Below, piece after piece: positions 2,307-29,623 of a stretch of DNA of 64,000 nt (positions within the stretch are counted from its first letter, which is position 1; each line of letters starts with the position of its first letter). Source of the stretch: Candidatus Limnocylindria bacterium (GTDB lineage Bacteria; Chloroflexota; Limnocylindria; QHBO01); NCBI GenBank assembly GCA_035701185.1, contig DASSNX010000169.1, positions 1,138-65,137 on the forward strand, written 5' to 3'. The position numbers and the translations under genes are program-made. Below the pieces are notes generated by a model that saw only the letters and a program-made list of their open reading frames with translations, did no database searches and was not told the origin of the DNA.

Positions 2307-3539
2307 ATGTTCTACGTCCAGCGCGGCCAGGTGCCGCACAAGCGGCACACCCAGTTCCGCCGCGAAGACGGGGCGTTGTACGCGGAGGAGCTGTTCGGCG
2401 TCGAGGGCTTCGCCGGCCGCTCGTCGCTGCTCTACCACCACACGCCGCCGACCCAGACGCACCAGATCGACGACCCGACCCCGATCAGGATCGACGCGGC
2501 CGACCCGGAGGGCCGCGCGGCGCATCGGCATCACCTGGTCAACACGAAGGACGTGGGGCCGTCGGGCGATGGCCTGTCCGGCCGCATCCCGCTCTTCTTC
2601 AACAACGACGTGACCTTCGGGGTCGTCCGCCCGGCGGAACCGATGACCGACTTCTACCGCAACGGCGTGGCGGACGAGATGTTCTACGTCCACGAGGGCA
2701 GCGGCACGCTGGAGACCATCTTCGGGCCGATCCCCTACGGGCCCGGCGACTACCTCGTCATCCCGATCGGCACCACCTATCGGCTGGTGCCGGACGCCTC
2801 GAGCGCACAGCGGATGCTGTGGCTCGAGTGCCCGTCGGAGATCGAGCCACCGAAGCGCTACCGCAACGACTACGGGCAGCTGCTCGAGCACGCGCCGTAC
2901 TACCACCGCGACATCCGCCCGCCGGACGAGATGGCCCCCACGGTGACCACCGAGCACGGCGACTTCGTCATCCGCGTGCGCAGCCGCGACCGGATCACGC
3001 CGTACCACTACCGTCACCACCCGTTCGACCTGGTGGGCTGGGACGGCTACCTGTGGCCGTTCGCCTTCAACATCGGCGACTTCGAGCCGATCACCGGGCG
3101 CGTCCACCAGCCACCGCCGGTGCACCTCACCTTCCAGCCGCGCAACTTCGTGATCTGCAGCTTCGTGCCACGCAAGTTCGACTACCACCCGCTGGCCATC
3201 CCGGCGCCGTACAACCACTCGAACATCAACAGCGACGAGGTCATCTACTACGTCGCCGGGAACTTCATGAGCCGCCGCGGCGTGGATATCTCCTCGTTCA
3301 CGGTGCACCCGGCCGGTATCCCGCACGGCCCGCATCCGGGGACGGTGGAGGCCAGCATCGGCAAGGAGGCGACCGAGGAGCTGGCGGTGATGATCGACAC
3401 GTTCCACCCGCTCCACCTGACGCGACAGGCAGCGGAGCTCGAGGACGACCGGTACCCGTACTCGTGGATCCCGTCCGAGGACCACGAGGAGCACACGCGC
3501 CAGCTCTCGGAACGCGGCCCGGAGGCCTTCCCCGACTGA
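2307..3539 (+). CDS. hmgA: Homogentisate 1,2-dioxygenase
   Basis: Roughly 410 aa with conserved HmgA blocks (FVPRKFDYHP, NSDEVIYYVAGNF, HPAGIPHGPHPG); ATG at 2307 preferred over the TTG at 2298. Confidence 0.9.
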   Translation: MFYVQRGQVPHKRHTQFRREDGALYAEELFGVEGFAGRSSLLYHHTPPTQTHQIDDPTPIRIDAADPEGRAAHRHHLVNTKDVGPSGDGLSGRIPLFFNNDVTFGVVRPAEPMTDFYRNGVADEMFYVHEGSGTLETIFGPIPYGPGDYLVIPIGTTYRLVPDASSAQRMLWLECPSEIEPPKRYRNDYGQLLEHAPYYHRDIRPPDEMAPTVTTEHGDFVIRVRSRDRITPYHYRHHPFDLVGWDGYLWPFAFNIGDFEPITGRVHQPPPVHLTFQPRNFVICSFVPRKFDYHPLAIPAPYNHSNINSDEVIYYVAGNFMSRRGVDISSFTVHPAGIPHGPHPGTVEASIGKEATEELAVMIDTFHPLHLTRQAAELEDDRYPYSWIPSEDHEEHTRQLSERGPEAFPD

Positions 3540-12084: not shown

Positions 12085-12933
12085 ATGCCGCGCAGGAAGA
12101 AGGAGCCGGAGCGCCGACGGGGCGCGGTGGTGGTCCGGGGCAAGGCTGATTCGCGGCGGCGCACGGAGGACCAGGAGCTGCTGCGCTCGGCGCCGGCGGC
12201 GGCCTTTGAGTTCCGCGAGACCGACACCTGGCGGACGCTTCGGATCATGGGCGAGTTCGTGGAGGGCTTCGACGCCCTGGCCGAGATCGGCCCCGCGGTC
12301 ACCGTCTTCGGGTCGGCCCGGGTCGGCCGGCGCAACCGCTACTACGGCGCCGCGCGACGCGTGGCCGCCGCCCTCGCCAAGAACGGCTTCGCGATCATCA
12401 CCGGCGGCGGTCCGGGGATCATGGAGGCCGCCAACCGGGGAGCCAAGGAGGGCGGCAGCCTCTCCATCGGCTGCAACATCGAGCTCCCGTTCGAGCAGGG
12501 GCTGAACGAGTACGTCGACCTGGGCATGGAGTTCCGCTACTTCTTCGTGCGCAAGACGATGTTCGTCAAGTACGCGGAGGGCTTCGTCATCTTCCCCGGG
12601 GGGTTCGGCACCCTGGACGAGCTGTTCGAATCACTCACCCTCATCCAGACCGGCAAGGTCGAGCATTTCCCGATCGTGCTCTACGGCAGGGAGTACTGGA
12701 ACGGGCTGCTCAAGTGGATCCGCGATCGGCCGCTGTACGAGGAGAAGATCAGCCCGGAGGACCTGGACCTGCTGACCGTCACGGATGACGTCGATACCGC
12801 CTGCAACGCGATCCTCGAGTCGCGCAAGAACCGCGAGGCGCGCGAAGCCCGGCGCGCGGACGAAAAGGCAAGCGTCCAGGCCACCGCGGAGGCCCGTCAG
12901 GAGGCAGCAGGCGGGTCTCGAAATGCGGATTGA
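12085..12933 (+). CDS. LOG family protein (cytokinin riboside 5'-monophosphate phosphoribohydrolase-like, TIGR00730)
   Basis: VFGSARV...GGGPGIMEA...PGGFGTLDE motifs; AGGGAG SD. Confidence 0.85.
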   Translation: MPRRKKEPERRRGAVVVRGKADSRRRTEDQELLRSAPAAAFEFRETDTWRTLRIMGEFVEGFDALAEIGPAVTVFGSARVGRRNRYYGAARRVAAALAKNGFAIITGGGPGIMEAANRGAKEGGSLSIGCNIELPFEQGLNEYVDLGMEFRYFFVRKTMFVKYAEGFVIFPGGFGTLDELFESLTLIQTGKVEHFPIVLYGREYWNGLLKWIRDRPLYEEKISPEDLDLLTVTDDVDTACNAILESRKNREAREARRADEKASVQATAEARQEAAGGSRNAD

Positions 12934-12976
12934 ATCGGCGTGCAGGAATCCGATACTTTGCTAACCACCTGCTGCT

Positions 12977-13007
12977 AGGATGCCCGCGTCGGCGACGCGC
13001 CGACATC
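12977..13007 (+). terminator. GC-rich hairpin downstream of the LOG gene (possible terminator without a U-tract)
   Basis: GGATG-cccgc-GTCGGCG-acg-CGCCGAC-ATCC inverted repeat. Confidence 0.3.
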
Positions 13008-13377
13008 CGCTCAGAGCAAACCCGTCGCGAGGCGGGGACGCAACGCCACGGACCTCTTCCGGGCAATCGGGGGTAGGCCGCCGGGCTGCCGGATCTTCGA
13101 TCCAGGCGATGGGACGGCCACGTTGCCCACACCGACCATCGGTTTGAGTTGACCCTCCCAGTCGCATGACGCGCACCCATTGGTGCTGGGCGCCAATGGG
13201 CACAAAAGGCGATCGGACGCGCCGCTAGGAGGGAGGTGGCCCGAACAACTGTCCGAGCACGTCACTTCCTGCAGCACGTCCGATCGTGCGACGCGTGACC
13301 GTACTTGGGAGTCCGTCCACGACGTCGATCGCATCGTACTGCAGGCTCCTGTTGCCCATTCCATCGGAGCTTGAGCA

Positions 13378-13905
13378 GTGCCACGCACCCGGCTGTGCTC
13401 GCGACCACGCACCCTGTGGTCGCGTCTTCTGACCGTCCTGCTCCTCGGAGCAGGGTTCGCGGTCCTGGCCCTTGCGTTCGCCGTGCGGCTCGCGGGATTG
13501 CATTTCCAGACCGTCCTGACGAATTCGATGCGGCCGACCTTCTCGGCCGGCGACGTCGTCGTGACGCGACCCGTGAGCATCGGCTCCGTCCAGGTGGGCG
13601 ATGTCATCGCGTTCCAGCCGCCCAACGGCTCGGAACCGGTCATTCACCGGGTCACGTCGGAGAAGGACGGCGTGATCAGGACGCGGGGTGACGCAAACCC
13701 GGTCAACGACCCATGGAAGGTCAGGCTGGAGGGCTCGACGGCGTATCGCCTGATCGCGGTCCTGCCTGGCCTCGGCTGGTTGGCGACCCTGCAGCGTCCC
13801 CTGCTCCTGCTGGCCGCGCTCCTCGCGATGCTCGCCATCGCGCTCGAGCTGCGAAACGTGGTGCAAGCCCGAACCAAGCGGGCCGTGCCCGAGCCACGAC
13901 CCTGA
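13378..13905 (+). CDS. Signal peptidase I, SipW/Sec11 type (S26B)
   Basis: N-terminal TM, catalytic Ser (TNSMRPTFSAGD), His (VIHRV) and RGDAN motifs typical of archaeal/eukaryal-type SPase (SipW-like); C-terminal TM anchor; GTG start with GGAG. Confidence 0.8.
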   Translation: MPRTRLCSRPRTLWSRLLTVLLLGAGFAVLALAFAVRLAGLHFQTVLTNSMRPTFSAGDVVVTRPVSIGSVQVGDVIAFQPPNGSEPVIHRVTSEKDGVIRTRGDANPVNDPWKVRLEGSTAYRLIAVLPGLGWLATLQRPLLLLAALLAMLAIALELRNVVQARTKRAVPEPRP

Positions 13906-13960
13906 CCGGACGGTCCTGCCGGGCCGATCGGGGCGTTCCAATTCAGGGAGGACTCATTTC

Positions 13961-15148
13961 GTGACGCTACGCAAGACCGCCGCTGCGCTGGCAGTGGCTG
14001 GCCTGATCGTCGGACTCATCGGGTCCGGGATCGGCGCCAGCTTCGTGTCGACGCTGACGGCCACCGAAAACATCCAGGTCGGCGGATTCGCCTGCCGGAT
14101 CATCGAGCCGAGTGACGGCACGGTTGCCGGTGACGGGAAGTCGGTAACCTATGACGCGCCGACCATCACCAGCTCGGCGGCCGGCAATGCCCCGTTCTCG
14201 TTCACCGTCGAGAACAACGGCGACATCGACCAGCTGCTGACGGTCTCGAAGACCGGCCAGAGCGGAAACCTGTCGGGGAAGTTCTCTGACATGCCGGCCT
14301 CGCCGTCACCCGTCACGCTGCCGGCCGGCGGCTCCGTGGAGATCACCACCGGCATCCAGTGGACCGAGCTCGACAACGACGATCTGGGCCGGTTCGGCTC
14401 CATGGTCTGGACGATCAACTGCGGCGAGGCCAGTGTCGGCTTCGACAACGCCCCGAACGTGCTGCCAGGAAACCTGCCGAGCTACGGCCCCGAGGCCTAC
14501 TCGTTCGACGAGTGGGGCGGCCAGGTCGCGCTGGCGGGGACTGCCCGGGATCTTTCGGCGGCCACCGTCACCCTGAGCAGCTGGGCCTGCGAGAGCGGCA
14601 CTTGGAACGGGAACGACTGCGCGACCACCCCGGGCGCGACCTTCAACGTGCCGATCACGTTCAACGTCTACAACGTCGGCCCCAGCAACGCAGTCGGCTC
14701 GCTCATCACGAGCAAGACCCAGACGTTCGCGGTTCCGTTCCGGCCCAGCGCCGACGCGGTCAACTGCACCGGACCCGACGCCGGGAAGTGGTTCAACGGC
14801 ACGACCTGCTTCAACGGCAAGGCCGTGAACGTCACGTTCAGCTTCGCCGGCGAGACGTTGCCGGACAACGTGATCTTCGGGATCACCTTCAACACGAGCA
14901 ACTACGGCTATGCGCCGCTCGGGGCTGGCACACACCCGACCGACTCGCTCAACATCGCGACCTACCCCGGCAATGGCGTGTCCACGCCGGCCGAGGTCGG
15001 GAGCTGGGTGCCGGACGACGTGTCCGCGTACGTGGCGAACGGTGCGGCGAACACGCCGTTCGCGGGGCCGGTCACGAACCTCCCGACCGGCCCGGGCGAC
15101 AACTTCGTCGGCTACATGCCGGCGGTCCAGATCTTCACGGCCCCGTAG
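13961..15148 (+). CDS. Secreted protein with TasA/camelysin-like SipW-cognate N-terminal signal
   Basis: Signal/TM helix then GASFVSTLTATENIQVGGF, resembling the SipW-cognate consensus (A.F.D.E...N.F.AG) of TasA/CalY; flanked by two sipW-type genes; Gly/Thr/Asn-rich beta-type composition; GTG start with AGGGAGG SD. Confidence 0.65.
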   Translation: MTLRKTAAALAVAGLIVGLIGSGIGASFVSTLTATENIQVGGFACRIIEPSDGTVAGDGKSVTYDAPTITSSAAGNAPFSFTVENNGDIDQLLTVSKTGQSGNLSGKFSDMPASPSPVTLPAGGSVEITTGIQWTELDNDDLGRFGSMVWTINCGEASVGFDNAPNVLPGNLPSYGPEAYSFDEWGGQVALAGTARDLSAATVTLSSWACESGTWNGNDCATTPGATFNVPITFNVYNVGPSNAVGSLITSKTQTFAVPFRPSADAVNCTGPDAGKWFNGTTCFNGKAVNVTFSFAGETLPDNVIFGITFNTSNYGYAPLGAGTHPTDSLNIATYPGNGVSTPAEVGSWVPDDVSAYVANGAANTPFAGPVTNLPTGPGDNFVGYMPAVQIFTAP

Positions 15149-15171
15149 CGGCGGAGGACTGGTAACCCGAA

Positions 15172-16392
15172 ATGGCCGGCAGGCAGGCGCTGATCTCCCG
15201 CCACGGTGGCGGGCGCCTGCCTGCTGCGACGCAGCTGATTCCCGGACCCGGCCATGCGCTGCATGGTCGGGTCCCCCACCTCTCGCCGAGGGCGCTGCTC
15301 GGTGCGGCGCTCGAAGCCCTGCTGGTGGCGGCCATCGCGCTGGCGGCCTTCATCGCGCTCGGCCTGGTCGGCAATCCCTGGTACCGCGTCATCGGCATCG
15401 ACGGTGGGTCCATGCAGCCGACCCTGTCTCAGGGCGACCTGATCGTGGTCCGTCCCACACCCTCGATCATCGAGCCCGGCATGATCCTGGTCATGACGGT
15501 GGGCGACGAGACCGTCACGCACCGCGTCGTCGCCGTTGGCCCCAATGGAACCTTCACGACCCGCGGCGACGCGAACGCGGCAGATGACCACTGGGATGCG
15601 CGGGACGTCCGCGTCCGGGGGCTCTACGTCGCGACCATCCCCTGGCTGGGACGGGTCCTGCCGGTCCCCGACACGTCCGAAGCCCTGTTCACCGACGAGG
15701 TGACCGCGACGATGCAGCTCACGGTCGGTCCGTTCACGACGCCGAATCCGCCGCCCACGCCAGCCGAGTGTGGCGACATGAAGTTCGCCGAGGTCCTGGT
15801 CGGCACGTCCGGCGACGATGTATTCCACGCCGCCAACGGTGGTGCCCTCATCTTCGGCCTCGGCGGCAACGACACGATTTACGGCGGGAACGCCAAGGAC
15901 TGCCTCGTCGGGGGCGACGGCAACGACCTGCTGGTCGGCGGCAACGGCAAGGACGTCCTCCTCGGCGAGGACGGCAACGATGTCCTGGTCGGCGGTGCCG
16001 ACAACGACGTGGCCGAGGGCGGCAACGGCAAGGACCGCCTGGACGGCGGCGACGGGACCGATGCGTGCATCGGCACCAGGAAGGACACGTACGTCGACTG
16101 CGAGTCGGTCAGCAACGGCTCCAGCAGCCCGACTACCGATGGACCCCGCCGGTTGAGTACGCCTGAACCGACACCGGTCAGCCAGCCGCCGGATCCCGCG
16201 GGTGCGACGCCGTCATCGGCCGAGACACCGTCACCGGATCCAACGCCCAGCCCATCGGCTGAGCCGACGGCCGCACCCGAGACGCCAACGCCGACGCCGG
16301 ACCCCACGCCGACCGTGCCCGGAGGGCAGGCGCAAAGAGGGTGGGAGATCGGTCACGAGTGGCGGGCCCGACCGGATTCGAACCGGCGCTAG
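15172..16392 (+). CDS. Signal peptidase I (SipW/S26B type) fused to RTX calcium-binding repeats and a Pro/Thr-rich tail
   Basis: GGSMQPTLSQGDLIVV (Ser), VTHRVV (His) and TTRGDAN motifs, then about 8 GGxGxDxxx nonapeptide repeats (GGNDTIYGGNAKDCLVGGDGNDLLVGGNGKDVLLGEDGNDVLVGGADNDVAEGGNGKDRLDGGDGTD) and a PT-rich linker. Confidence 0.7.
   Translation: MAGRQALISRHGGGRLPAATQLIPGPGHALHGRVPHLSPRALLGAALEALLVAAIALAAFIALGLVGNPWYRVIGIDGGSMQPTLSQGDLIVVRPTPSIIEPGMILVMTVGDETVTHRVVAVGPNGTFTTRGDANAADDHWDARDVRVRGLYVATIPWLGRVLPVPDTSEALFTDEVTATMQLTVGPFTTPNPPPTPAECGDMKFAEVLVGTSGDDVFHAANGGALIFGLGGNDTIYGGNAKDCLVGGDGNDLLVGGNGKDVLLGEDGNDVLVGGADNDVAEGGNGKDRLDGGDGTDACIGTRKDTYVDCESVSNGSSSPTTDGPRRLSTPEPTPVSQPPDPAGATPSSAETPSPDPTPSPSAEPTAAPETPTPTPDPTPTVPGGQAQRGWEIGHEWRARPDSNRR
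16360..16388. repeat. attL: 29-bp direct repeat identical to the 3' end of tRNA-Asp
   Basis: tggcgggcccgaccggattcgaaccggcg at 16360-16388 is identical to 20950-20978. Confidence 0.75.
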
Positions 16393-16585
16393 CAGCACCC
16401 ACGATCCGTATTCCGATCATCCGCAGGTCAGAGTGGCTGCTAGCTGCCGGTTGTCGGCCTAATAATCAGGAAGCGCTGCCACGCACGGTCGGTTCGTCCA
16501 GGAAGGCTGGCGAGCGATAATCCGCTCATCTGGTGACGCGGCTTCTAGTCACGACAGGCTAGATGTCACAATGAGAACATACGTT

Positions 16586-17308
16586 CTATGCTAGATCGCG
16601 GATGGCCGTTGTACCTTCGCGCCGCCGAGATATCTGATTTTCGGGCCAATCGGCTGCTGCGATACGAAGTTCGGGATGTCCGCGATCGTACCGAGAAGCG
16701 GCTCTATCTCTATGCCCACCGAGAGACAGCGAGGCATGTGCAGTTGGGTCTCCGAAGCCTGGGCTGCGATCCGCTGACGATGACAGATGAGCAGCGTCGG
16801 GACTGGACCCACCGGTACAGCCTCGACGGTCCCCTCGATGAGGAATCGGAGTCTTTCTTGGAGTTGATGAAGGAGGTCCTGACCTTGAATGTCCCGTCCG
16901 AAATCGACGCGGCGCTCGCGCTGGACTTCCATTAGGATCCCGAGTCGCATGAAGACCGGATGCAGTGGAAGAACACCGAGGTCTGACCCACTCAATGGGT
17001 GTAGGCAGCTTCGAAGGGTTCTGCCAGTAACACTCCTGGGCCAGCGAGTAGCCCAGTTCCTCAACGGCCCGGATCACAAACTTCCACTGCACCAGCGTCC
17101 GGGCAGGCTCTCCGCGGCGGTAGGCGGGGCCAATATCGATGACGAACGACCCGGTGTCCGCCAGCTTCGGCTTCAGCTCACGTGCGAAGCTCAGCAGCCA
17201 ATCGAGGTACTCATCTTCGACCGTGTTGCCGTATGCCTTCGGCCGGAGCAGAGCGAATGGGGGTGACGTGATGGCCAGGTCCACAGACTGATTGGCCAGT
17301 GTCGGCAA
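16586..17308 (-). pseudogene. DNA N6-adenine/N4-cytosine methyltransferase remnant (beta-class, motif IV SPPF), apparently frameshifted or truncated
   Basis: N-terminal ~108 aa (VDLAITSPPF...IIW-like IEWV) look like a DNA MTase; the rest of the ORF is low-complexity and no motif I (FxGxG) is present in any frame. Confidence 0.45.
16588..16935 (+). CDS. Hypothetical protein (island cargo)
   Basis: 115-aa ORF with protein-like composition in the low-GC region; antisense to the degenerate part of the methyltransferase ORF. Confidence 0.35.
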   Translation: MLDRGWPLYLRAAEISDFRANRLLRYEVRDVRDRTEKRLYLYAHRETARHVQLGLRSLGCDPLTMTDEQRRDWTHRYSLDGPLDEESESFLELMKEVLTLNVPSEIDAALALDFH

Positions 17309-17559
17309 CCATTCCAGGCTACACCTGAAACTGCGGTGCCGAGCTGAGTCTGGTAGGCCGACCGAATCGTCACGGATGCACTCTAGCGGTCCAGCGGTTT
17401 CCTGTGCCCGACCTCATCGCCAGCCGGTGCGGCCATCTTCTCATCCCCGCAGAGAACGACATGCAGTTCTCGGGGCCTAATGCTTGATTTCCGTCGTGGA
17501 GTTAGCCGATACTGCATCCAATCGGCTGCCGACTCGGATGCCGAGCAGGGAGGGATGCT

Positions 17560-19698
17560 GTGAATGGGCCCTGGGTGCGCCTAGCCGCGGCCACGTTCGC
17601 CGTTGCCATCGTCGGAAATGCCAGCGCGGCGCCAATGTCGTCGGATGCCGAAGAGGCTGCGAGGGCGCTCGCGCTCGACCGAGCGGCGCAGACCCTCGAC
17701 GTTGCCGCAGATGAGGTTACGAGCACATCAGAGGGTGTCATTCAGCCGTGGGGGGTTGATCGATTCTTCGTCGGGACTTACGAGACCGCTAGCGGGAATA
17801 CAACCGCCGTTTGGGTCGACTTGGCGACTTTGGCGGTTTACGACCGTAACGAATTCTGGGCGGCCACCGAAGAAGCGCGCAAAAATTTGGGCAAATACAC
17901 CCCGGATGTTCGGGCGACGCTCGATAACCTTGCCGACGGCGACAAAGCCACAGTCGCCATCACCTACTTGTCGGATTGGCGGCAGGCTGCGCTCGCGTCT
18001 TTTCGGCTTGCCGCGCCTAACGTAAAGCTTTCTGAAGACGGCAGACCAGATACCGGGGACGACAAGTTAAACCAGGAGATCGCGCAGGAGTTGCGAGACC
18101 TCCGCAAAGCCGCACTTGTGCTGGACCGCGAGCCAATCCTCGGACTGCTGAAAGAGCAGGCTTTGACGGTTGAATATGCCGCCGAATTGGTTCCGATGAT
18201 CTGGATCACAGGCAGCAAATCCCAAATCGAAGCGGTGACTGCGTCGCCTCTGGTGGTGAATACGCTTGGGTCGTACAAGACCGAATTGGCTTCGTGGAGT
18301 GAGGCTTATGACAACATCCAAGCAGGTGACGCCTATTCATCGAACTTCAGGGGCCAGGGTACGACTGTCGCTGTAGTCGAATACAACAACGTCAAATGGG
18401 ACATTCCAACCTTGAGCAGCATCCCGTCGAGCGACTACGACAATTTCGTACAAGGTAATGTACCTCCCCATGTAGATGGCCATCCAACCTGGGTGATGGC
18501 AGCGATTGCAAGCCGCACGTCAGGCCGCAGAGGCGTGGCGCCGAATGCACACTTTCTTAGTTCGTCCACAGTCGACGGGCATACGGATCCCAACTGTGAG
18601 ACGTGTGACTTCAACATAATCGCCGCGGTAGAGAAGACCTTCACAAACCCACAGAAACCAGACCCTGATGTCATCAACCTAAGTATCGTTGCTGACTCGG
18701 GACAGAACGGACATACCGGCGATGGTGCCGAATCGATGAAGGTTTATCTCGATAACCTGGTCGCAACCGAAAACATCCATGTTGCCGCGGCCGGCGGTGA
18801 CGACTTCACGGGCTTCAGGCAGTGCAGCAATGCAAATTCGCCCAAGCGCGTTCAGGAACCCGGCGGTGCTTGGAATGTCGTGGCGGCCGGCCTCACGAAA
18901 ATCAACGGATCTGGATGGGCGGACGATCAGATCTTCTTCGAAGCGCCGAGCGACGGCGATCCGGCTTTCTGTTGGGGCAACAACCCAGGCAATCCTGGGG
19001 ACCCGGTTACCCGTGTAAAGCCTGAGCTCGCAGCGCCGGGACAAGGCGTGACGTTCCCAGACTCCTACCTCTTCGGATATGAATCTGGCACGAGTATCAC
19101 TTCACCTCAAATCGCAGGCACTATGTCCGTCCTAATCGGCGAAGACCCGACAAACCTTCGATCGTACCCGGAGGTAGTGCGCGCAGTAATCGTCGCCTCG
19201 TCCGACGTTCATCAGACCGAGCCCTCCCACAATGAGGACGATTACGAGGGGTGGGGAACTCTGAGTGTTAAGTGGGCCACGGAGCTCGTCAAAAGGAATG
19301 CTGGCCGCGGAGACTTTGGACGGCGCAATTTTGCAGCAACGGGACAGGCTCCTCACTATGGTGCGCCGGGAAGCCTGTACCAGAACCTCAGGGCGGATTA
19401 CAACCGTGCTCGGTTCGTGATCTCGTGGAATAGTCACGGGATTTACGACCAGGGAGGCTGTGATGACACATCGACTTGTTCTGACGAGCGAATGACAGAT
19501 TTCGATATCCACGTAACTAATGCGGCGACCGGCGCCTTTGTGAAGGACTGCCTGAAGCCCGCGAGTAATTACGAGGTCTGTAGTTGGGCCTCAACCCCGG
19601 GGACCACGTATCACATCGTGATGGACCCGGTTGAGTGGAATCGATTGCAGCCCGCTGAGACTGTCGGGTGGGCATTCATGAGTCACAACGACCAATGA
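17560..19698 (+). CDS. Secreted S8 family (subtilisin-like) serine peptidase with a long N-terminal pro-region
   Basis: Signal peptide; His motif VDGHPTWVMAAIAS; Ser motif GTSITSPQIAGT; Asp-motif region reads VAVVEYNN (Glu where the catalytic Asp usually sits); GTG start with AGGGAGG SD. Confidence 0.8.
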   Translation: MNGPWVRLAAATFAVAIVGNASAAPMSSDAEEAARALALDRAAQTLDVAADEVTSTSEGVIQPWGVDRFFVGTYETASGNTTAVWVDLATLAVYDRNEFWAATEEARKNLGKYTPDVRATLDNLADGDKATVAITYLSDWRQAALASFRLAAPNVKLSEDGRPDTGDDKLNQEIAQELRDLRKAALVLDREPILGLLKEQALTVEYAAELVPMIWITGSKSQIEAVTASPLVVNTLGSYKTELASWSEAYDNIQAGDAYSSNFRGQGTTVAVVEYNNVKWDIPTLSSIPSSDYDNFVQGNVPPHVDGHPTWVMAAIASRTSGRRGVAPNAHFLSSSTVDGHTDPNCETCDFNIIAAVEKTFTNPQKPDPDVINLSIVADSGQNGHTGDGAESMKVYLDNLVATENIHVAAAGGDDFTGFRQCSNANSPKRVQEPGGAWNVVAAGLTKINGSGWADDQIFFEAPSDGDPAFCWGNNPGNPGDPVTRVKPELAAPGQGVTFPDSYLFGYESGTSITSPQIAGTMSVLIGEDPTNLRSYPEVVRAVIVASSDVHQTEPSHNEDDYEGWGTLSVKWATELVKRNAGRGDFGRRNFAATGQAPHYGAPGSLYQNLRADYNRARFVISWNSHGIYDQGGCDDTSTCSDERMTDFDIHVTNAATGAFVKDCLKPASNYEVCSWASTPGTTYHIVMDPVEWNRLQPAETVGWAFMSHNDQ

Positions 19699-20210
19699 TC
19701 CGTTTGGTCGGAATCTTCCTGGTCCTGGGTCTGCTATGCGTTGCTCCCGCAGGTACTTACGCAACCGTGGGTGGCCAGTTGTCGGTAAAAATCAGCTTCC
19801 GGGGACCGTGCGAGGCCCAGGGATACCTTCAGGTCGACAACAAGTCTGGGGACTTTGTCGTCCTCGACAAGGCGTTCGAGTGGTCAGCAACACAGCCTAT
19901 CCGCCAAGTTATTGGCGCAACTCCGATTGCCGACCCAGGTGACAGGCTACTGCTCCGACTGTTTGCCGCTGATCACTCCACAGTTCTTTTCAAGTCGGAT
20001 TCGTTCAGTCACAGCGGCGATGAGAGTGGGTACTTTTCCAACTTCACGGCATTGCTGGATTGTTCGACCACTCCGTACCAGGCAGTTGTCAGCGATACGG
20101 CGATGTCCGACCCTGGTCGTGATTGGCTAACGCCGGTGGGAATTGCCCTGTCGGTTGCGGCCGTGGGGATGGCCCTGCTACTTCTGCCGCTGAAGAAGCG
20201 AGCCGATTAG
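19695..20210 (+). CDS. Hypothetical secreted/membrane-anchored protein coupled (ATGA) to the S8 peptidase gene
   Basis: N-terminal signal peptide MIRLVGIFLVLGLLCVAPAGTYA and a C-terminal TM helix followed by KKRAD. Confidence 0.55.
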   Translation: MIRLVGIFLVLGLLCVAPAGTYATVGGQLSVKISFRGPCEAQGYLQVDNKSGDFVVLDKAFEWSATQPIRQVIGATPIADPGDRLLLRLFAADHSTVLFKSDSFSHSGDESGYFSNFTALLDCSTTPYQAVVSDTAMSDPGRDWLTPVGIALSVAAVGMALLLLPLKKRAD

Positions 20211-20370
20211 GTCCTTCCAACCCAACCCTTGAGAGCGGCTTTACCAGCGCTTCGGCAGACGGCTCCGTACGCTGCGGAAGAAATCGGTCGCAGGCGGGGT
20301 CGACCAACGCCAGCGATGACCGTTGTGAAGGCAGCGTGTTTCTAGGCGCGCCAGCAGGGGACTCGTGTCG

Positions 20371-20772
20371 TCAGGAAGGTGATTGAGACTTCAGAATCTG
20401 AAATACCGTCATCGGGTACCAGCGGCCACCCTTCGCGGTCGGAATGCCTTCCGTGTTGAACATGTCCGCGATGGCGGCGTATGTGAGCCCCTTCATGCGC
20501 ATGAAGTTGATGCGCTTTCGAATTTCCAGTGGGTAGCTGCGCGGTGCCCCAAAGCGGTGCCCGGCCGCCATCTTGGCTCTCATCGCATCTCTGGTCCGTT
20601 GCGCTATCAGGTTGCGTTCAAATTCGGCGAACACGGACAGGACACCAGCCATCATCTGGCCCTGGGGCGTGCTCATGTCGAGGCCTAGATCAAGGATCGC
20701 CAACGACCAGCGCTCTCGTTGGGCATCACGCACGATCCGGGCGAAGTCGAATTGCGAACGGGATAGCCTCAT
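20371..20772 (-). pseudogene. Serine recombinase (resolvase/invertase) fragment lacking the N-terminal catalytic Ser region
   Basis: ORF begins at the LDRLSRS-like motif and continues through the resolvase dimerisation region and C-terminal HTH (GLTYAAIADMFN); there is a stop codon and no catalytic-domain sequence upstream. Confidence 0.6.
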
Positions 20773-20949
20773 GGTCGCTCGCGAGTGAGAAAGCGAAAGC
20801 TGATCTGCTCCACGCGATCATCGGACGGGTGCTGGTACAAGGGTCGGAATTCGTAGGCGTGGAACTCACGCCGCATGCCGAGGCGCACGGATTAGCGCTC
20901 TGCCTACCTGAGCACGTCCGTTCGGAAAGGAGCCGCTCTGGTGCTGCTA

Positions 20950-20978
20950 TGGCGGGCCCGACCGGATTCGAACCGGCG
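20950..20978. repeat. attR: 29-bp direct repeat (3' end of the intact tRNA-Asp)
   Basis: Identical to 16360-16388. Confidence 0.75.
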
Positions 20979-21026
20979 ATCTCCAGCGTGACAGGCTGGC
21001 ATGTTGGGCCGCTACACCACGGGCCC
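20950..21026 (-). tRNA. tRNA-Asp (anticodon GTC)
   Basis: Cloverleaf GGGCCCG-TG-D arm-CCAGC CTGTCAC GCTGG-T arm (GGTTCGAATCC)-CGGGCCC-G-CCA; anticodon loop CUGUCAC. Confidence 0.9.
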
Positions 21027-21070
21027 GCAGGAGCGACGGGGGCGGAGTATAGCAGGCGCCTCCGGGACCT

Positions 21071-21520
21071 TCAGATCGGCGCCCCAGGCCGTTCGCGGGA
21101 CCTGACGAGGCTGCGCGCCGTCCAACCGTAGCCGATGGCCACCAGCGCCAGGCCGATCCCCGCCGGCACCATCGTGACGGCCGGTCCCGATCCCGAAGCC
21201 GCGCTCACGACGGCTGCCACACCCCAGCCGATGCACAGCACCAGCATGGCGGCCGCCAGGACCGCCGCCGCCGACAGCGCCTCCCGGATCCCCCGCCACA
21301 GCAGCGCCGCGCCAAGGAGGTGAAGCACCGCCAGCGCAAGGAGCGCGGCACCGCTGGCCGTAGCCGCCCCGCCCACGGCGGCGGCGTCGATGATCACCGG
21401 CGGCAGCAGGCCGTAAAGCCACGCCGAGAAGAAGCCGCCGACCACGATGCCGCCGATCCCTCCGGCGGCGAGGACGAGCCCTGTGCCCAGCAGCCAGGCG
21501 ACAGCGAAGCGTGGCGCCAT
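21071..21520 (-). CDS. Hypothetical integral membrane protein
   Basis: 149-aa highly hydrophobic ORF (4 TM) inside a long composite reverse-strand ORF; ATG at 21520. Confidence 0.4.
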   Translation of the reverse strand: MAPRFAVAWLLGTGLVLAAGGIGGIVVGGFFSAWLYGLLPPVIIDAAAVGGAATASGAALLALAVLHLLGAALLWRGIREALSAAAVLAAAMLVLCIGWGVAAVVSAASGSGPAVTMVPAGIGLALVAIGYGWTARSLVRSRERPGAPI

Positions 21521-22180: not shown

Positions 22181-23227
22181 ATGCCGTTCGAGCCCCCCGA
22201 GGATCCCCGGGCCGCACGTCGGAGCGCCATCACCCGCTGGGTCTCGTTCGCGCTGGTCCTCATCCTGGTGGCCCTGGTCGGCTATTTGGGGGTGGTGGGC
22301 TTCATCGGCTCCGACCAGCTGGCCAACCCGCCCGAACACAGCACTGACTGCCGTACGCCGGCGAGGGCCGAGGGCTGGGTCTACGAGGCCGTGAACTACG
22401 ACGTGGCCAGCGACGGCCGCCTGGCGGACGTGGCTGACCCGCTCCACTGCCCGCCGAACGAGGCCAAGGCCGGCGCGAAGATCGAGACCGCCGACGGCGT
22501 CCGGATCGCGGCGTGGTACATCCCGGCCGGCGACGGCGGCGCGGCGAACGGCCCCACCGTCGTCCTGGCGCACGGCTACGGCCAGAACAAGAGCACCATG
22601 CTGCCCTGGGCGGAGCTGCTGCACGACCACTACAACCTCGTCCTCTTCGACTTCCGCAACCACGGCCAGTCGACCGGCAGCCAGACCACCCAGGGCGTGC
22701 TGGAGGCGAGCGACCTGCGGGCGGTGATCGACTGGCTGGAGAAGGCCAAGAAGCCGCGCCAGCTGGCCGTGCTGGGCGTCTCGATGGGCGGTGCCAGCGC
22801 GCTGCACGAGGCCGTCGGCGACACTCGCGTCGATGCCGTGGTCCTCGACTCCACCCACGCCACCCTCGCCGACGCTGTCCAGGCGCGCCTGGCCCGCCAG
22901 GGTTACCCGCTGGCCCTGCCGGCGGCGTGGGGCATCCTGCTCGGTGGGCTGATCCGGACCGGGCAGGACATGAGCACAGTGGACCCGGTCGGCGAGATCA
23001 CGCGCCTCCATCGGCCGGTGCTCATCATCGTCGGCGGTCGCGACGACGCCATCGGCGCGCATGACGGGCAGGACCTGCTCGACGCCGCGCGCGCCGACCA
23101 GGACGGGGGCAGCTCGTCCGGCCTCGACACCTGCCCGCGCGCCGGCCACGCGGAGTCGGTCGATCGCTGCCGGAGCGACTACCGAGGCTGGGTGCTAGGC
23201 TTCCTCGAGCGCAACCTGGCGCCGTAA
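22181..23227 (+). CDS. Alpha/beta hydrolase (membrane-anchored)
   Basis: N-terminal TM; GVSMGG nucleophile elbow; HGYGQNK oxyanion region; conserved Asp and His downstream. Confidence 0.8.
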   Translation: MPFEPPEDPRAARRSAITRWVSFALVLILVALVGYLGVVGFIGSDQLANPPEHSTDCRTPARAEGWVYEAVNYDVASDGRLADVADPLHCPPNEAKAGAKIETADGVRIAAWYIPAGDGGAANGPTVVLAHGYGQNKSTMLPWAELLHDHYNLVLFDFRNHGQSTGSQTTQGVLEASDLRAVIDWLEKAKKPRQLAVLGVSMGGASALHEAVGDTRVDAVVLDSTHATLADAVQARLARQGYPLALPAAWGILLGGLIRTGQDMSTVDPVGEITRLHRPVLIIVGGRDDAIGAHDGQDLLDAARADQDGGSSSGLDTCPRAGHAESVDRCRSDYRGWVLGFLERNLAP

Positions 23228-26225: not shown

Positions 26226-26381
26226 GACGTTCCTCCTCGTTAGAGCGTTCTGCCCCGGGTAGATGCACCTCGCGTGCCAACCCGCGTCATCAGCGCCATC
26301 GGCCTCGTCTGGAAATTCCGCCGCCGCGAGCACCCGCGACTGAGCGACGATGCCAAGGGTCGGGTACGCTAGGGCTCCCGC

Positions 26382-26457
26382 GCGCCGGTAGCTCAGTGGA
26401 TAGAGCGTCGGCCTCCGGAGCCGAAGGTCGCAGGTTCGAATCCTGTCCGGCGCGCCA
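26382..26457 (+). tRNA. tRNA-Arg (anticodon CCG)
   Basis: GCGCCGG-TA-GCTCAGTGGATAGAGC-G-TCGGC CTCCGGA GCCGA-AGGTC-GCAGGTTCGAATCCTGT-CCGGCGC-G-CCA. Confidence 0.9.
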
Positions 26458-26462
26458 GTTCC

Positions 26463-26846
26463 CTAGAAGTGCTCCTCGTCCGGATCGTGGCGCTCGTCGC
26501 CACCGAGGATCGTTTCCGCGCCTGCCGGTCGCTCCGCTGGCGGCACGGCCCGCTCCTCCATCCGGTACGCCGGGTCGTCTGCGCTGAGCCCGGTGCCCGA
26601 GCCGTAGCCACCCGACCGCGTCGACTGCGGCTTGTCGTCGCTGACCGGCTCCGGTCCGGCCGCTCCGGCGGGGCCGCCGACACCGTGCTCGGCCGCCTGC
26701 CGATGCAGCTCACCGGTCACCTGCCGCGCCCCGTCGGGATCGCTGATCTCTCGTGTCTCGGCCGGGACGAACTCGTCGCCCGGGTCCGAGGGAGTGAGGC
26801 TGCCGGTGGCCCCGGTCAGCCCACCCTGCTCTCGGTCTTCTCGCAT
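26463..26846 (-). CDS. Hypothetical acidic, predicted-disordered protein
   Basis: 127-aa ORF with a GGGAGG SD before ATG 26846; D/E/G-rich. Confidence 0.45.
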   Translation of the reverse strand: MREDREQGGLTGATGSLTPSDPGDEFVPAETREISDPDGARQVTGELHRQAAEHGVGGPAGAAGPEPVSDDKPQSTRSGGYGSGTGLSADDPAYRMEERAVPPAERPAGAETILGGDERHDPDEEHF

Positions 26847-28679: not shown

Positions 28680-29623
28680 CCGGGTGGCGCGAAGATCCGC
28701 AGGGCAGCCGGCTGGACGGCGAACACCACTGGAGTGATGCCGATGGGCTCGCCGTCGGCGTGGGCCGGCAGCGCGCGACGGCGGCCGACGACCGTTACCC
28801 GCCTGGCGGAGAGGCGCTTGACGCGCGGCTCGCGCCGCGGCCGGTTGCGCGCCACCGCCAGGTAGTGACGCAGGACGTCCAGGGTCGTCATCCCGGAGAA
28901 GACGACGAGGTCGAGCTCGCCGTCGGCGGGATCGGCCTCCGGCGCCAGGGCGAAGCCGAACCCGTAGTACGGCCCGTTGCAGGCGGTGACCGCCGGCGCG
29001 CCGGTCCGCAGCCGCCGCCCGTCGACCGTCAACAGCATCCCGGTTCGGCGCCGGCGCAATGCTCGCCACGCCGCCCGCACCGCGCGCCACGCGCCATAGC
29101 GGTCGCCGACGGCCACGGCGCCGAAGCCGGCCGCATCCAGGCCCACGCCGGCGGCCTCGAAGAAGGCGGCCGCGTTCGCGGGCGGCCGCTCGTCGTCATC
29201 CGCGCCGGAGGCGTGCCACGCCACGCCCGCGTCGACCAACCGCGGGGCGCCGGTGGCGATGATCCGCAGGGCGTCCGGCTCCTCGCGGGGCAGGCCCCAG
29301 CCGGTGGCGATGTTGTTCCACGACCCGCGCGGCACGACGCCGAGCGTCGCGTCGCTGCCCACCAGCGCCGCGGCCACGGGCCGGACGGTGCCGTCCCCAC
29401 CGGCCACTGCCACGTCCCACTCCTTGGCGATGGCCTCGGCGGCCAGGGCAGCGGCGTCGTCGTCCTCGGCCAGGACGTGGAGCTGGACGCGCAGGCCGTG
29501 GCCCGTCAGCTGCTGCTGCATCTCCTCCGGCTCGAGCGGCGGATGGTCGGTTGCCGGCGAGGCGGGCTTGCCGCCGGAGACCGGGTTCACGAGCAGCAGC
29601 AGGGGCCGCCGGCCGTCACTCAT
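28622..29623 (-). CDS. Diacylglycerol kinase catalytic-domain family lipid kinase (YegS/BmrU-like)
   Basis: LLLLVNPVSGG...VAVAGGDGTV motif; ATG at 29623 overlaps the upstream gene's stop (ATGAGTGA). Confidence 0.75.
   Translation of the reverse strand: MSDGRRPLLLLVNPVSGGKPASPATDHPPLEPEEMQQQLTGHGLRVQLHVLAEDDDAAALAAEAIAKEWDVAVAGGDGTVRPVAAALVGSDATLGVVPRGSWNNIATGWGLPREEPDALRIIATGAPRLVDAGVAWHASGADDDERPPANAAAFFEAAGVGLDAAGFGAVAVGDRYGAWRAVRAAWRALRRRRTGMLLTVDGRRLRTGAPAVTACNGPYYGFGFALAPEADPADGELDLVVFSGMTTLDVLRHYLAVARNRPRREPRVKRLSARRVTVVGRRRALPAHADGEPIGITPVVFAVQPAALRIFAPPGQAPGSPVAAAASAPKTRA

Follow-up and report, generated by a model that had tools for sequence, protein, structure and literature searches.

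In a 64,000-nucleotide (nt) stretch of DNA from a metagenome-assembled genome (MAG) of Candidatus Limnocylindria bacterium (Chloroflexota), here called the window, a segment poor in G+C (GC) lies between an intact tRNA-Asp(GTC) gene (20950..21026, minus strand; called by ARAGORN, with 64 bits against the Rfam tRNA model) and an exact copy of that gene's 3' end. What is this segment, and which enzyme put it there? We consider it probable that 16389-20949, the island, is the gutted leftover of a mobile element, and that the element's own large serine recombinase (LSR), of which a short C-terminal relic still abuts the tRNA, had placed it in the 3' part of tRNA-Asp. As an object the island is an ordinary decayed integrative element; the more interesting part is the clade of LSRs, apparently directed at tRNA genes, to which the relic belongs.

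An insertion in the 3' end of tRNA-Asp

The 29-mer TGGCGGGCCCGACCGGATTCGAACCGGCG occurs exactly, and in direct orientation, at 16360-16388 and 20950-20978. The proximal attachment (att) copy (20950..20978) consists of the last 29 nt of tRNA-Asp (positions 48-76, with the CCA end), and the distal att copy (16360..16388) is its exact duplicate; the base after the 29-mer differs between the two (C at 16389, A at 20979). Even when up to three mismatches were allowed, only these two copies were found in the 64 kb, where none is expected (100 shuffles). The possibility of a dispersed repeat had been raised in an earlier note on this DNA, written from the letters alone, which had also described the duplication. 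The 29-mer is present once in each of four related loci (L002-L005), and it is therefore not a dispersed repeat.

These four loci, all from Limnocylindria MAGs, were fetched via the hydrolase gene that lies just past the tRNA (22181-23227). The closest, L002 (DATBJR010000029), is ~86% identical at the nucleotide level over 4.9 kb. L002 matches window positions 16189-16388 and those from 20950 onward without interruption: what lies left of 16360 in the window is found there directly downstream of the tRNA-Asp 3' end, and the flanks are collinear. Since the left flank of L002 runs straight into the tRNA, L002 represents the empty site that the earlier note had proposed looking for, and the island is an insertion. 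The more distant L003, L004 and L005 also lack it. The tRNA-Asp 3' half is identical across L002-L005 and a further locus, L019.

Composition sets the island apart as well. GC content is 58.5% over its 4,561 bp, while the left flank has 70.8% and the right flank 70.9%, and GC at third codon positions (GC3) is 0.62-0.64 in its two cargo genes and 0.91-0.94 in neighbouring core genes. The drop is thus real, though milder than the 47-57% given by the earlier note: windows of 200 nt vary between 51% and 67.5%, and only a single 100-nt window goes as low as 47%. Together with the empty site and the uniqueness of the repeat, this foreign composition bears out the earlier description of a tRNA-targeted integrative element.

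The same comparisons bear on whether the segment could instead be ancestral and lost in the relatives by recombination between the repeats, or be an artefact of MAG assembly. The source is indeed a metagenome-assembled genome, and L002 is the only close relative that covers the site. Yet the island is missing from four of four relatives, three more distant ones among them, its cargo has the deviant GC3 just given, and a loss between att repeats would itself imply an integrated element. As for misassembly, the contig names of related MAGs show k=141 (k141_...), far longer than a 29-bp repeat, and the flanks are collinear with L002. We regard this explanation as very improbable, the least credible of those considered here.

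A serine recombinase relic against the tRNA

Which enzyme could have carried out the insertion? The earlier note had pointed to a decayed serine recombinase next to the tRNA. This gene is present (20371..20772, minus strand) and is truncated as described: it matches PF00239 at positions 74-144 of 145 and lacks its first ~97 residues, the catalytic Ser motif included, where full-length homologs have 212-232 amino acids (aa). Residues 99-228 of the homolog P0004 match window positions 20769-20386 with 76% identity. It is not the gene nearest to the tRNA, however, because the relic of an LSR sits between the two. We recognized the relic because another locus, L010, holds a 68%-identical small recombinase together with an LSR of 511 aa; at the edge of the contig, the end of this LSR gene runs into the 3' end of a tRNA. 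The relic (20745..20949, plus strand) comprises the last ~78 codons of such a gene and reads into the att site and the tRNA. Residues 436-513 of the LSR P0013 match window positions 20745-20975 (61.5% identity, E 1.7e-18), and with the C-terminal parts of the L010 and L011 LSRs the relic shares 62-67% identity. Of the whole LSR gene, just the C-terminal ~15% is thus left in the window. Neither the relic nor the 10-bp inverted repeats described below appear in the earlier note.

Thus the only recombinase next to an att site of the island is the ~78-codon LSR relic, and the island holds no intact recombinase. Elsewhere in the 64-kb window no other LSR was found; the only other match was to an antisense translation of a tRNA-Arg gene. 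The relic abuts the tRNA in the position and orientation that are canonical for its family, and we therefore take the LSR, rather than the small recombinase favoured by the earlier note, as most likely the integrase of the island.

The small recombinase might nevertheless have acted as the integrase itself. It lies 177 nt from the tRNA, PHROGs files its homolog P0004 under an 'integrase' family, and a precedent exists in phage phiRSM, in which, according to PMC7192596 and PMC3429521, a resolvase-like enzyme integrates at a tRNA 3' end. phiRSM shares with the island both serine-recombinase chemistry and a tRNA 3'-end target, but the integrase of the family described here is a ~500-aa LSR, and the small recombinase appears to be an accessory that elsewhere occurs without tRNAs: neither a tRNA nor a tRNA-like segment was found within 10 kb in the loci of its homologs, L006-L009. 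Of ~109 LSR loci, only 2 also contain it, at a distance of 1.2-2.7 kb from the att site, and in the window the LSR relic separates it from the tRNA. A role as integrase is accordingly very unlikely.

Full-length kin of the fragment, ~225 aa long, are encoded in L006-L009, in L010 (3799-4479) and in L012 (8099-8827), and so occur both with and without an LSR. They consist of a Resolvase domain followed by the start of a 'Recombinase' domain in place of the classic helix-turn-helix (HTH).

Serine recombinases paired with tRNA genes

To place the relic, we turned to the family of the L010 enzyme. About 110 relatives were fetched; a metagenome scan yielded 263 tblastn-confirmed relatives, of which 80 were kept, and a scan of viral contigs added 21. 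Homologs of the L010 LSR are ~490-545 aa long. Pfam Resolvase (PF00239) was detected in 12 of 12 family members, and the L010 protein scores above the cutoff for PF07508. The family profile matches SPbeta SprA/YokA over profile positions 165-451. A search of the PDB by sequence with a single family member gave no match, and 50,697 GenBank phage records held no relative above 28% identity. An AlphaFold model of P0013 (predicted local distance difference test, pLDDT, 78.5) found the full-length integrases of SPbeta, PhiC31, Bxb1 and LI in Foldseek, with E-values from 6e-17 (SPbeta) to 4e-10. As modelled, the family belongs to the LSR fold, with the same fold and domain order as PhiC31, Bxb1, Listeria A118/LI and SPbeta SprA.

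The loci inspected first had a convergent tRNA overlapping the 3' end of the LSR gene. Site statistics were drawn from the 66 loci in which the C-terminus of the LSR is complete and the sequence continues for at least 80 nt past it. A convergent tRNA stands at the end of the LSR gene in 35 of them: Arg-CCG in 20, Pro-CGG in 8, Arg-GCG, Arg-TCG and Arg-TCT in 2 each, and Asp-GTC in 1. The whole fetched set (1.03 Mb) contains only 61 tRNAs. Among the remaining 31 loci, 26, including most IMG/VR contigs, carry a mimic of a tRNA 3' end right after the LSR gene, beginning at the CCA end, and in 21 of these 26 the identity with the tRNA stops after 14-17 nt. One such locus, L104, is a genuine phage, in which the LSR and its site are followed by genes for an endolysin, a large terminase, a portal protein and a major head protein. 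Since a phage genome carries the mimic after its LSR, these sites represent attP.

The LSR open reading frame (ORF) was called through the att site and the tRNA end (L010-L118; window 20529-21131, plus strand), giving tails of the form AxA(R/C)P(T/R)G(F/L)EP(A/P)TF. We rejected this frame as a conserved functional feature, as L019 uses another frame on an identical tRNA-Asp end; the overlap of ORF and tRNA may be incidental in GC-rich genomes.

Characterized LSRs use an attP of ~50 bp, symmetric about a central dinucleotide that is flanked by inner and outer motifs for protein binding. The ends of the island fit this plan. Just inside the att copies lie two 10-bp terminal inverted repeats, TAGCAGCACC (16390..16399), which would be the outer part of the P' arm of the element, and GGTGCTGCTA (20940..20949), which would be the outer part of its P arm; this 10-mer or its complement occurs nowhere else in the window, where 0.05 occurrences are expected. 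When attP is rebuilt from the inner ends of the island it reads GGTGCTGCTA-TGGCGGGCCCGACC-GG-ATTCGAACCGGCGC-TAGCAGCACC, with a dyad score of 17/26 and the perfect outer inverted repeats centred on GG. The distal att copy is a hybrid of a chromosomal left arm, the core and the P' arm of the element. In relatives, motifs similar to GGTGCTGCTA (GCTGCTA, GCTGTTA or GGTTA) precede the tRNA mimic.

The same GG recurs across the family. In attP forms, the best dyad centre is repeatedly the GG that follows a 14-nt tRNA mimic (for example in L099, L100, L101, L104, L106, L109 and L116). Over 27 sites, the dyad score at GG averages 12.3/26, where the background is 7.5 +/- 2.4 (99th percentile 13), and in 8 loci GG is the top symmetry centre within +/-200 nt. 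In L038, a tandem older LSR relic is followed by TGGCGCGCCCGACAGG, and the tRNA identity breaks exactly after GG. L070 is a complete 2.9-kb element between 17-bp direct repeats. By numbering derived from the sequence, GG corresponds to C61-C62 of the tRNA, on the 3' strand of the T-stem at its junction with the T-loop. The putative crossover dinucleotide would thus lie at 16374..16375 in the distal copy and at 20964..20965 in the proximal copy, and on balance we favour strand exchange at exactly this position.

These observations suggest the following route. The element of origin would have been phage-like or a small integrative element, with an LSR gene that ended at attP. The left arm of this attP would copy the last 14-16 nt of the target tRNA, covering the CCA end, the 3' strand of the acceptor stem and part of the T-stem. 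Upon strand exchange at GG (tRNA C61-C62), the left arm of this particular element would have replaced the last 16 nt of tRNA-Asp, such that the gene survived, and the original tRNA end would have been displaced to the far side, where with the right arm of the element it would form the distal site. Because the right arm here equals the tRNA for 13 further nt, the direct repeat would reach 29 bp. Later deletions and an inversion would have cost the LSR ~435 codons, the accessory small serine recombinase its first ~97 codons and a DNA methylase most of its length, leaving two intact att sites and a two-gene cargo.

At the level of the family, the data favour, by a modest margin of belief, a large and uncharacterized LSR clade known from metagenomes only and specialized on tRNA genes (Arg, Pro, Asp), with attP at or inside the 3' end of its integrase gene, the last 14-16 nt of the tRNA copied and crossover at C61-C62. 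Like PhiC31/Bxb1-type LSRs, its members have an integrase gene adjoining attP, an attP of ~50 bp, an imperfect dyad and a central non-palindromic dinucleotide. Unlike them, the family targets a tRNA gene, which the left arm of attP rebuilds, and its core spans 14-17 bp (29 bp in the island) instead of a few bp.

Several observations weigh against this picture. About a third of the sites without a full tRNA show no dyad symmetry at the proposed centre; these are the 'CGTAAG-TGGTCGGGG' subgroup (L060, L071, L074, L079, L084, L089 and L111). Pfam Recombinase (PF07508) was found in only 3 of 12 family members. A far att copy, sought with and without mismatches, was found within the 10-kb flanks in only two other LSR loci, L038 and L070; most elements are therefore longer than the fetched stretch. 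The evidence that the clade recombines at tRNAs is comparative, and serine-integrase use of tRNA genes is flagged in PMC7192596 as needing experimental proof. Finally, an identity block of 29 bp is what one typically sees with tyrosine integrases, and for a serine integrase it is long. Core identity extends over 29 bp at the island and, for 21 of 26 relatives, over 14-17 bp, which departs from the short attP/attB identity of characterized LSRs. The length would follow from the need to rebuild the tRNA, and a 29-nt identity is also seen in L074.

The length of the repeat raises the question whether a classical tyrosine integrase inserted the island, with crossover in the T-loop region and subsequent deletion of its gene, the LSR relic being a passenger. 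A 29-bp duplication of a tRNA 3' end that starts at the T-stem is a textbook footprint of such enzymes, and PMC7192596 assigns t(m)RNA targets to 44.5% of mapped tyrosine-integrase elements compared with 4.9% of serine-integrase elements. Islander/P4-type islands made by tyrosine integrases share with ours a duplicated tRNA 3' end, a tRNA that is restored, cargo of low GC and an unoccupied site in relatives; ours differs in having an LSR relic and an LSR-type symmetric attP. A tyrosine recombinase is encoded in some LSR-family loci (L009, L014-L016), but in L014-L016 it lies ~5 kb from the tRNA, away from the att site. In the island, no match to PF00589 was found in the 19 ORFs of at least 80 aa that cover it, the LSR relic lies exactly where the integrase of its family usually does, reading into the tRNA end, and the 10-bp terminal inverted repeats centre on the GG of that family. 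An origin by tyrosine integrase is therefore unlikely, if less so than integration by the small recombinase.

The wider interest lies in the type of integrase. Serine integrases are prized as tools, since their att sites are short and they need no host factors. Starting from a single relic, more than 100 relatives were collected whose site design is consistent and testable, and this design would explain how a serine integrase could target an essential RNA gene without destroying it. If it is correct, serine integrases use tRNA targets systematically, and their natural attB sites would be short and extremely conserved and could serve as ready-made landing sites.

Serine integrases at tRNA genes are a known kind of element, one that is rare and unproven. 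Mageeney et al., 2020 (PMC7192596) placed 14 of 297 serine-integrase (S-Int) islands at tRNA genes, called such use unreported and asked for experimental proof. Bordeleau et al., 2012 (PMC3429521) mention eight related serine integrases of conjugative, integrating elements of actinomycetes (AICEs) at a mycobacterial tRNA-Leu and a few phage cases, phiRSM among them. A preprint on tycheposons reports an LSR in 27 of 937 tRNA-island elements and describes island growth by repeated integration and decay beside a tRNA, and surveys of mycobacterial prophages locate serine integrases away from tRNAs. Mined S-Int islands, AICEs and tycheposon-like elements thus share with our locus a serine recombinase at a tRNA site and accumulation or decay there. 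In the excerpts available, those cases concern other phyla and other tRNAs, are flagged as unproven and come without a description of att anatomy, whereas the present loci form a coherent clade with a defined attP design and with Arg, Pro and Asp targets. A limited literature search found no description of this LSR clade or of its att design.

Gene content, decay and neighbouring DNA

What remains of the element besides its ends? At ~20745-20772 the small recombinase adjoins the LSR relic in head-to-head orientation. Fuller relatives, L010 and L012, have the two genes in the same orientation, with the small recombinase ~1.2-2.7 kb upstream of an LSR that adjoins the tRNA, and also carry an HTH_17 protein; the difference in orientation implies a deletion plus an inversion in the window. 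Further upstream, L012 encodes an N6/N4 methylase and an Mrr-type nuclease. The island retains an N-terminal fragment of an N6/N4 DNA methyltransferase (16994..17308, minus strand; PF01555 E 1.3e-10, positions 1-90 of 221). Its mechanically called ORF spans 16586-17308, and only the first ~105 aa or so are methylase; the fragment is 60% identical to the methylase of the LSR element L012 over an overlap of 25 aa. The earlier note had read this gene as a fragment, and the partial Pfam match agrees. It had also listed an orphan ORF, which remains one: this candidate gene of 115 aa (16588..16935, plus strand) has no match in Pfam or NCBIfam and no tblastn match in any fetched locus.

Both att sites and both 10-bp inverted repeats are perfect, so integration or decay was probably recent. 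That the element is immobilized, as the earlier note held, is right insofar as no intact recombinase is left. With both att sites intact, however, the relic may still be movable in trans by a helper enzyme. Such an arrangement recalls the CIMEs, cis-mobilizable leftovers of integrative elements exemplified by those related to Streptococcus ICESt1/ICESt3, which likewise have two intact att sites around cargo and no working recombinase. The island differs in that its att sites are of serine-integrase type and in that the 64-kb window offers no helper LSR.

The cargo consists of two genes. The first (17560..19698, plus strand) encodes a secreted subtilase-like protein of 712 aa, identical to NCBI VFL75_10560. 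The earlier note had called it a secreted S8 peptidase. Secretion and a remote likeness to S8 stand (NCBIfam mycosin E 1.3e-9, partial; PDB 7y6m E 6.6e-5), but no Pfam family matched even at E<=10, PF00082 included. Of 25 relatives aligned, 25 have Glu, in a VEY motif, where S8 enzymes have their catalytic Asp, and the motifs around His, Asn and Ser are retained, which suggests a Glu-His-Ser variant of the subtilase fold. The family is small and divergent: 1.84 billion cluster representatives held 163 relatives at E<=1e-3 and 19 at E<=1e-30. The protein is therefore subtilase-like and not a standard S8 member, lacking both the Asp-His-Ser triad and a match to the family model.

The second gene (19695..20210, plus strand) encodes a membrane protein of 171 aa with an N-terminal signal-like segment and a C-terminal membrane anchor, and it matched no family. 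An ATGA overlap at 19695-19698 couples its translation to that of the 712-aa gene, in agreement with the coupling noted earlier. Its end combines a conserved WLT motif, a hydrophobic helix and a basic tail, and resembles a C-terminal sorting or anchor signal. That it might be a substrate of the co-encoded protease is speculation. The only close homologous pair is in L001 (409-2538, 70% identity; partner at 2535-3053, 55%), again in a low-GC patch, between an ammonium-transporter-like gene and a gene for a FAD oxidoreductase. The context of the L001 cassette showed no tRNA, LSR or flanking repeats; the cassette has therefore been acquired independently of the LSR element at least once. In the island, the pair would represent a recent horizontal gain of secreted protease-like functions in Limnocylindria, a poorly known soil lineage.

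The island is not the only variable DNA at this tRNA. In L003-L005, a LOG-family gene that ends at window position 12933 itself abuts tRNA-Asp, and 12934-16359 is therefore also lineage-specific DNA at the same tRNA end. This 3.4-kb block is an older insert, common to L002 and with host-like GC3, and tRNA-Asp has thus collected variable DNA here more than once. We searched for a decayed att copy at its 12934 boundary and found no convincing match. The block starts with a c-di-GMP-I riboswitch (13005-13093, plus strand; Rfam RF01051, 51.6 bits, E 3e-7) and its genes specify a secreted protein of 395 aa (13961-15148) and two SipW-like signal peptidases, one at 13378-13905 and one, which has RTX repeats, at 15172-16392.

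The tRNA-Arg(CCG) locus (26285-26358 and 26457-26463) is variable as well. L004 has ~1 kb of extra DNA right after the tRNA-Arg 3' end (L004 6506-7499), without a direct repeat, in which an LSR footprint was sought and none was found; L002 has ~3.9 kb of extra DNA upstream of the tRNA (L002 6882-10805). The window's copy of this tRNA, which the LSR family targets most often, is unoccupied. Lastly, ARAGORN called an 88-nt tRNA-Gly(CCC) at 29327-29414 (minus strand), which falls below the Rfam tRNA gathering score and is either a doubtful or an unusual gene.

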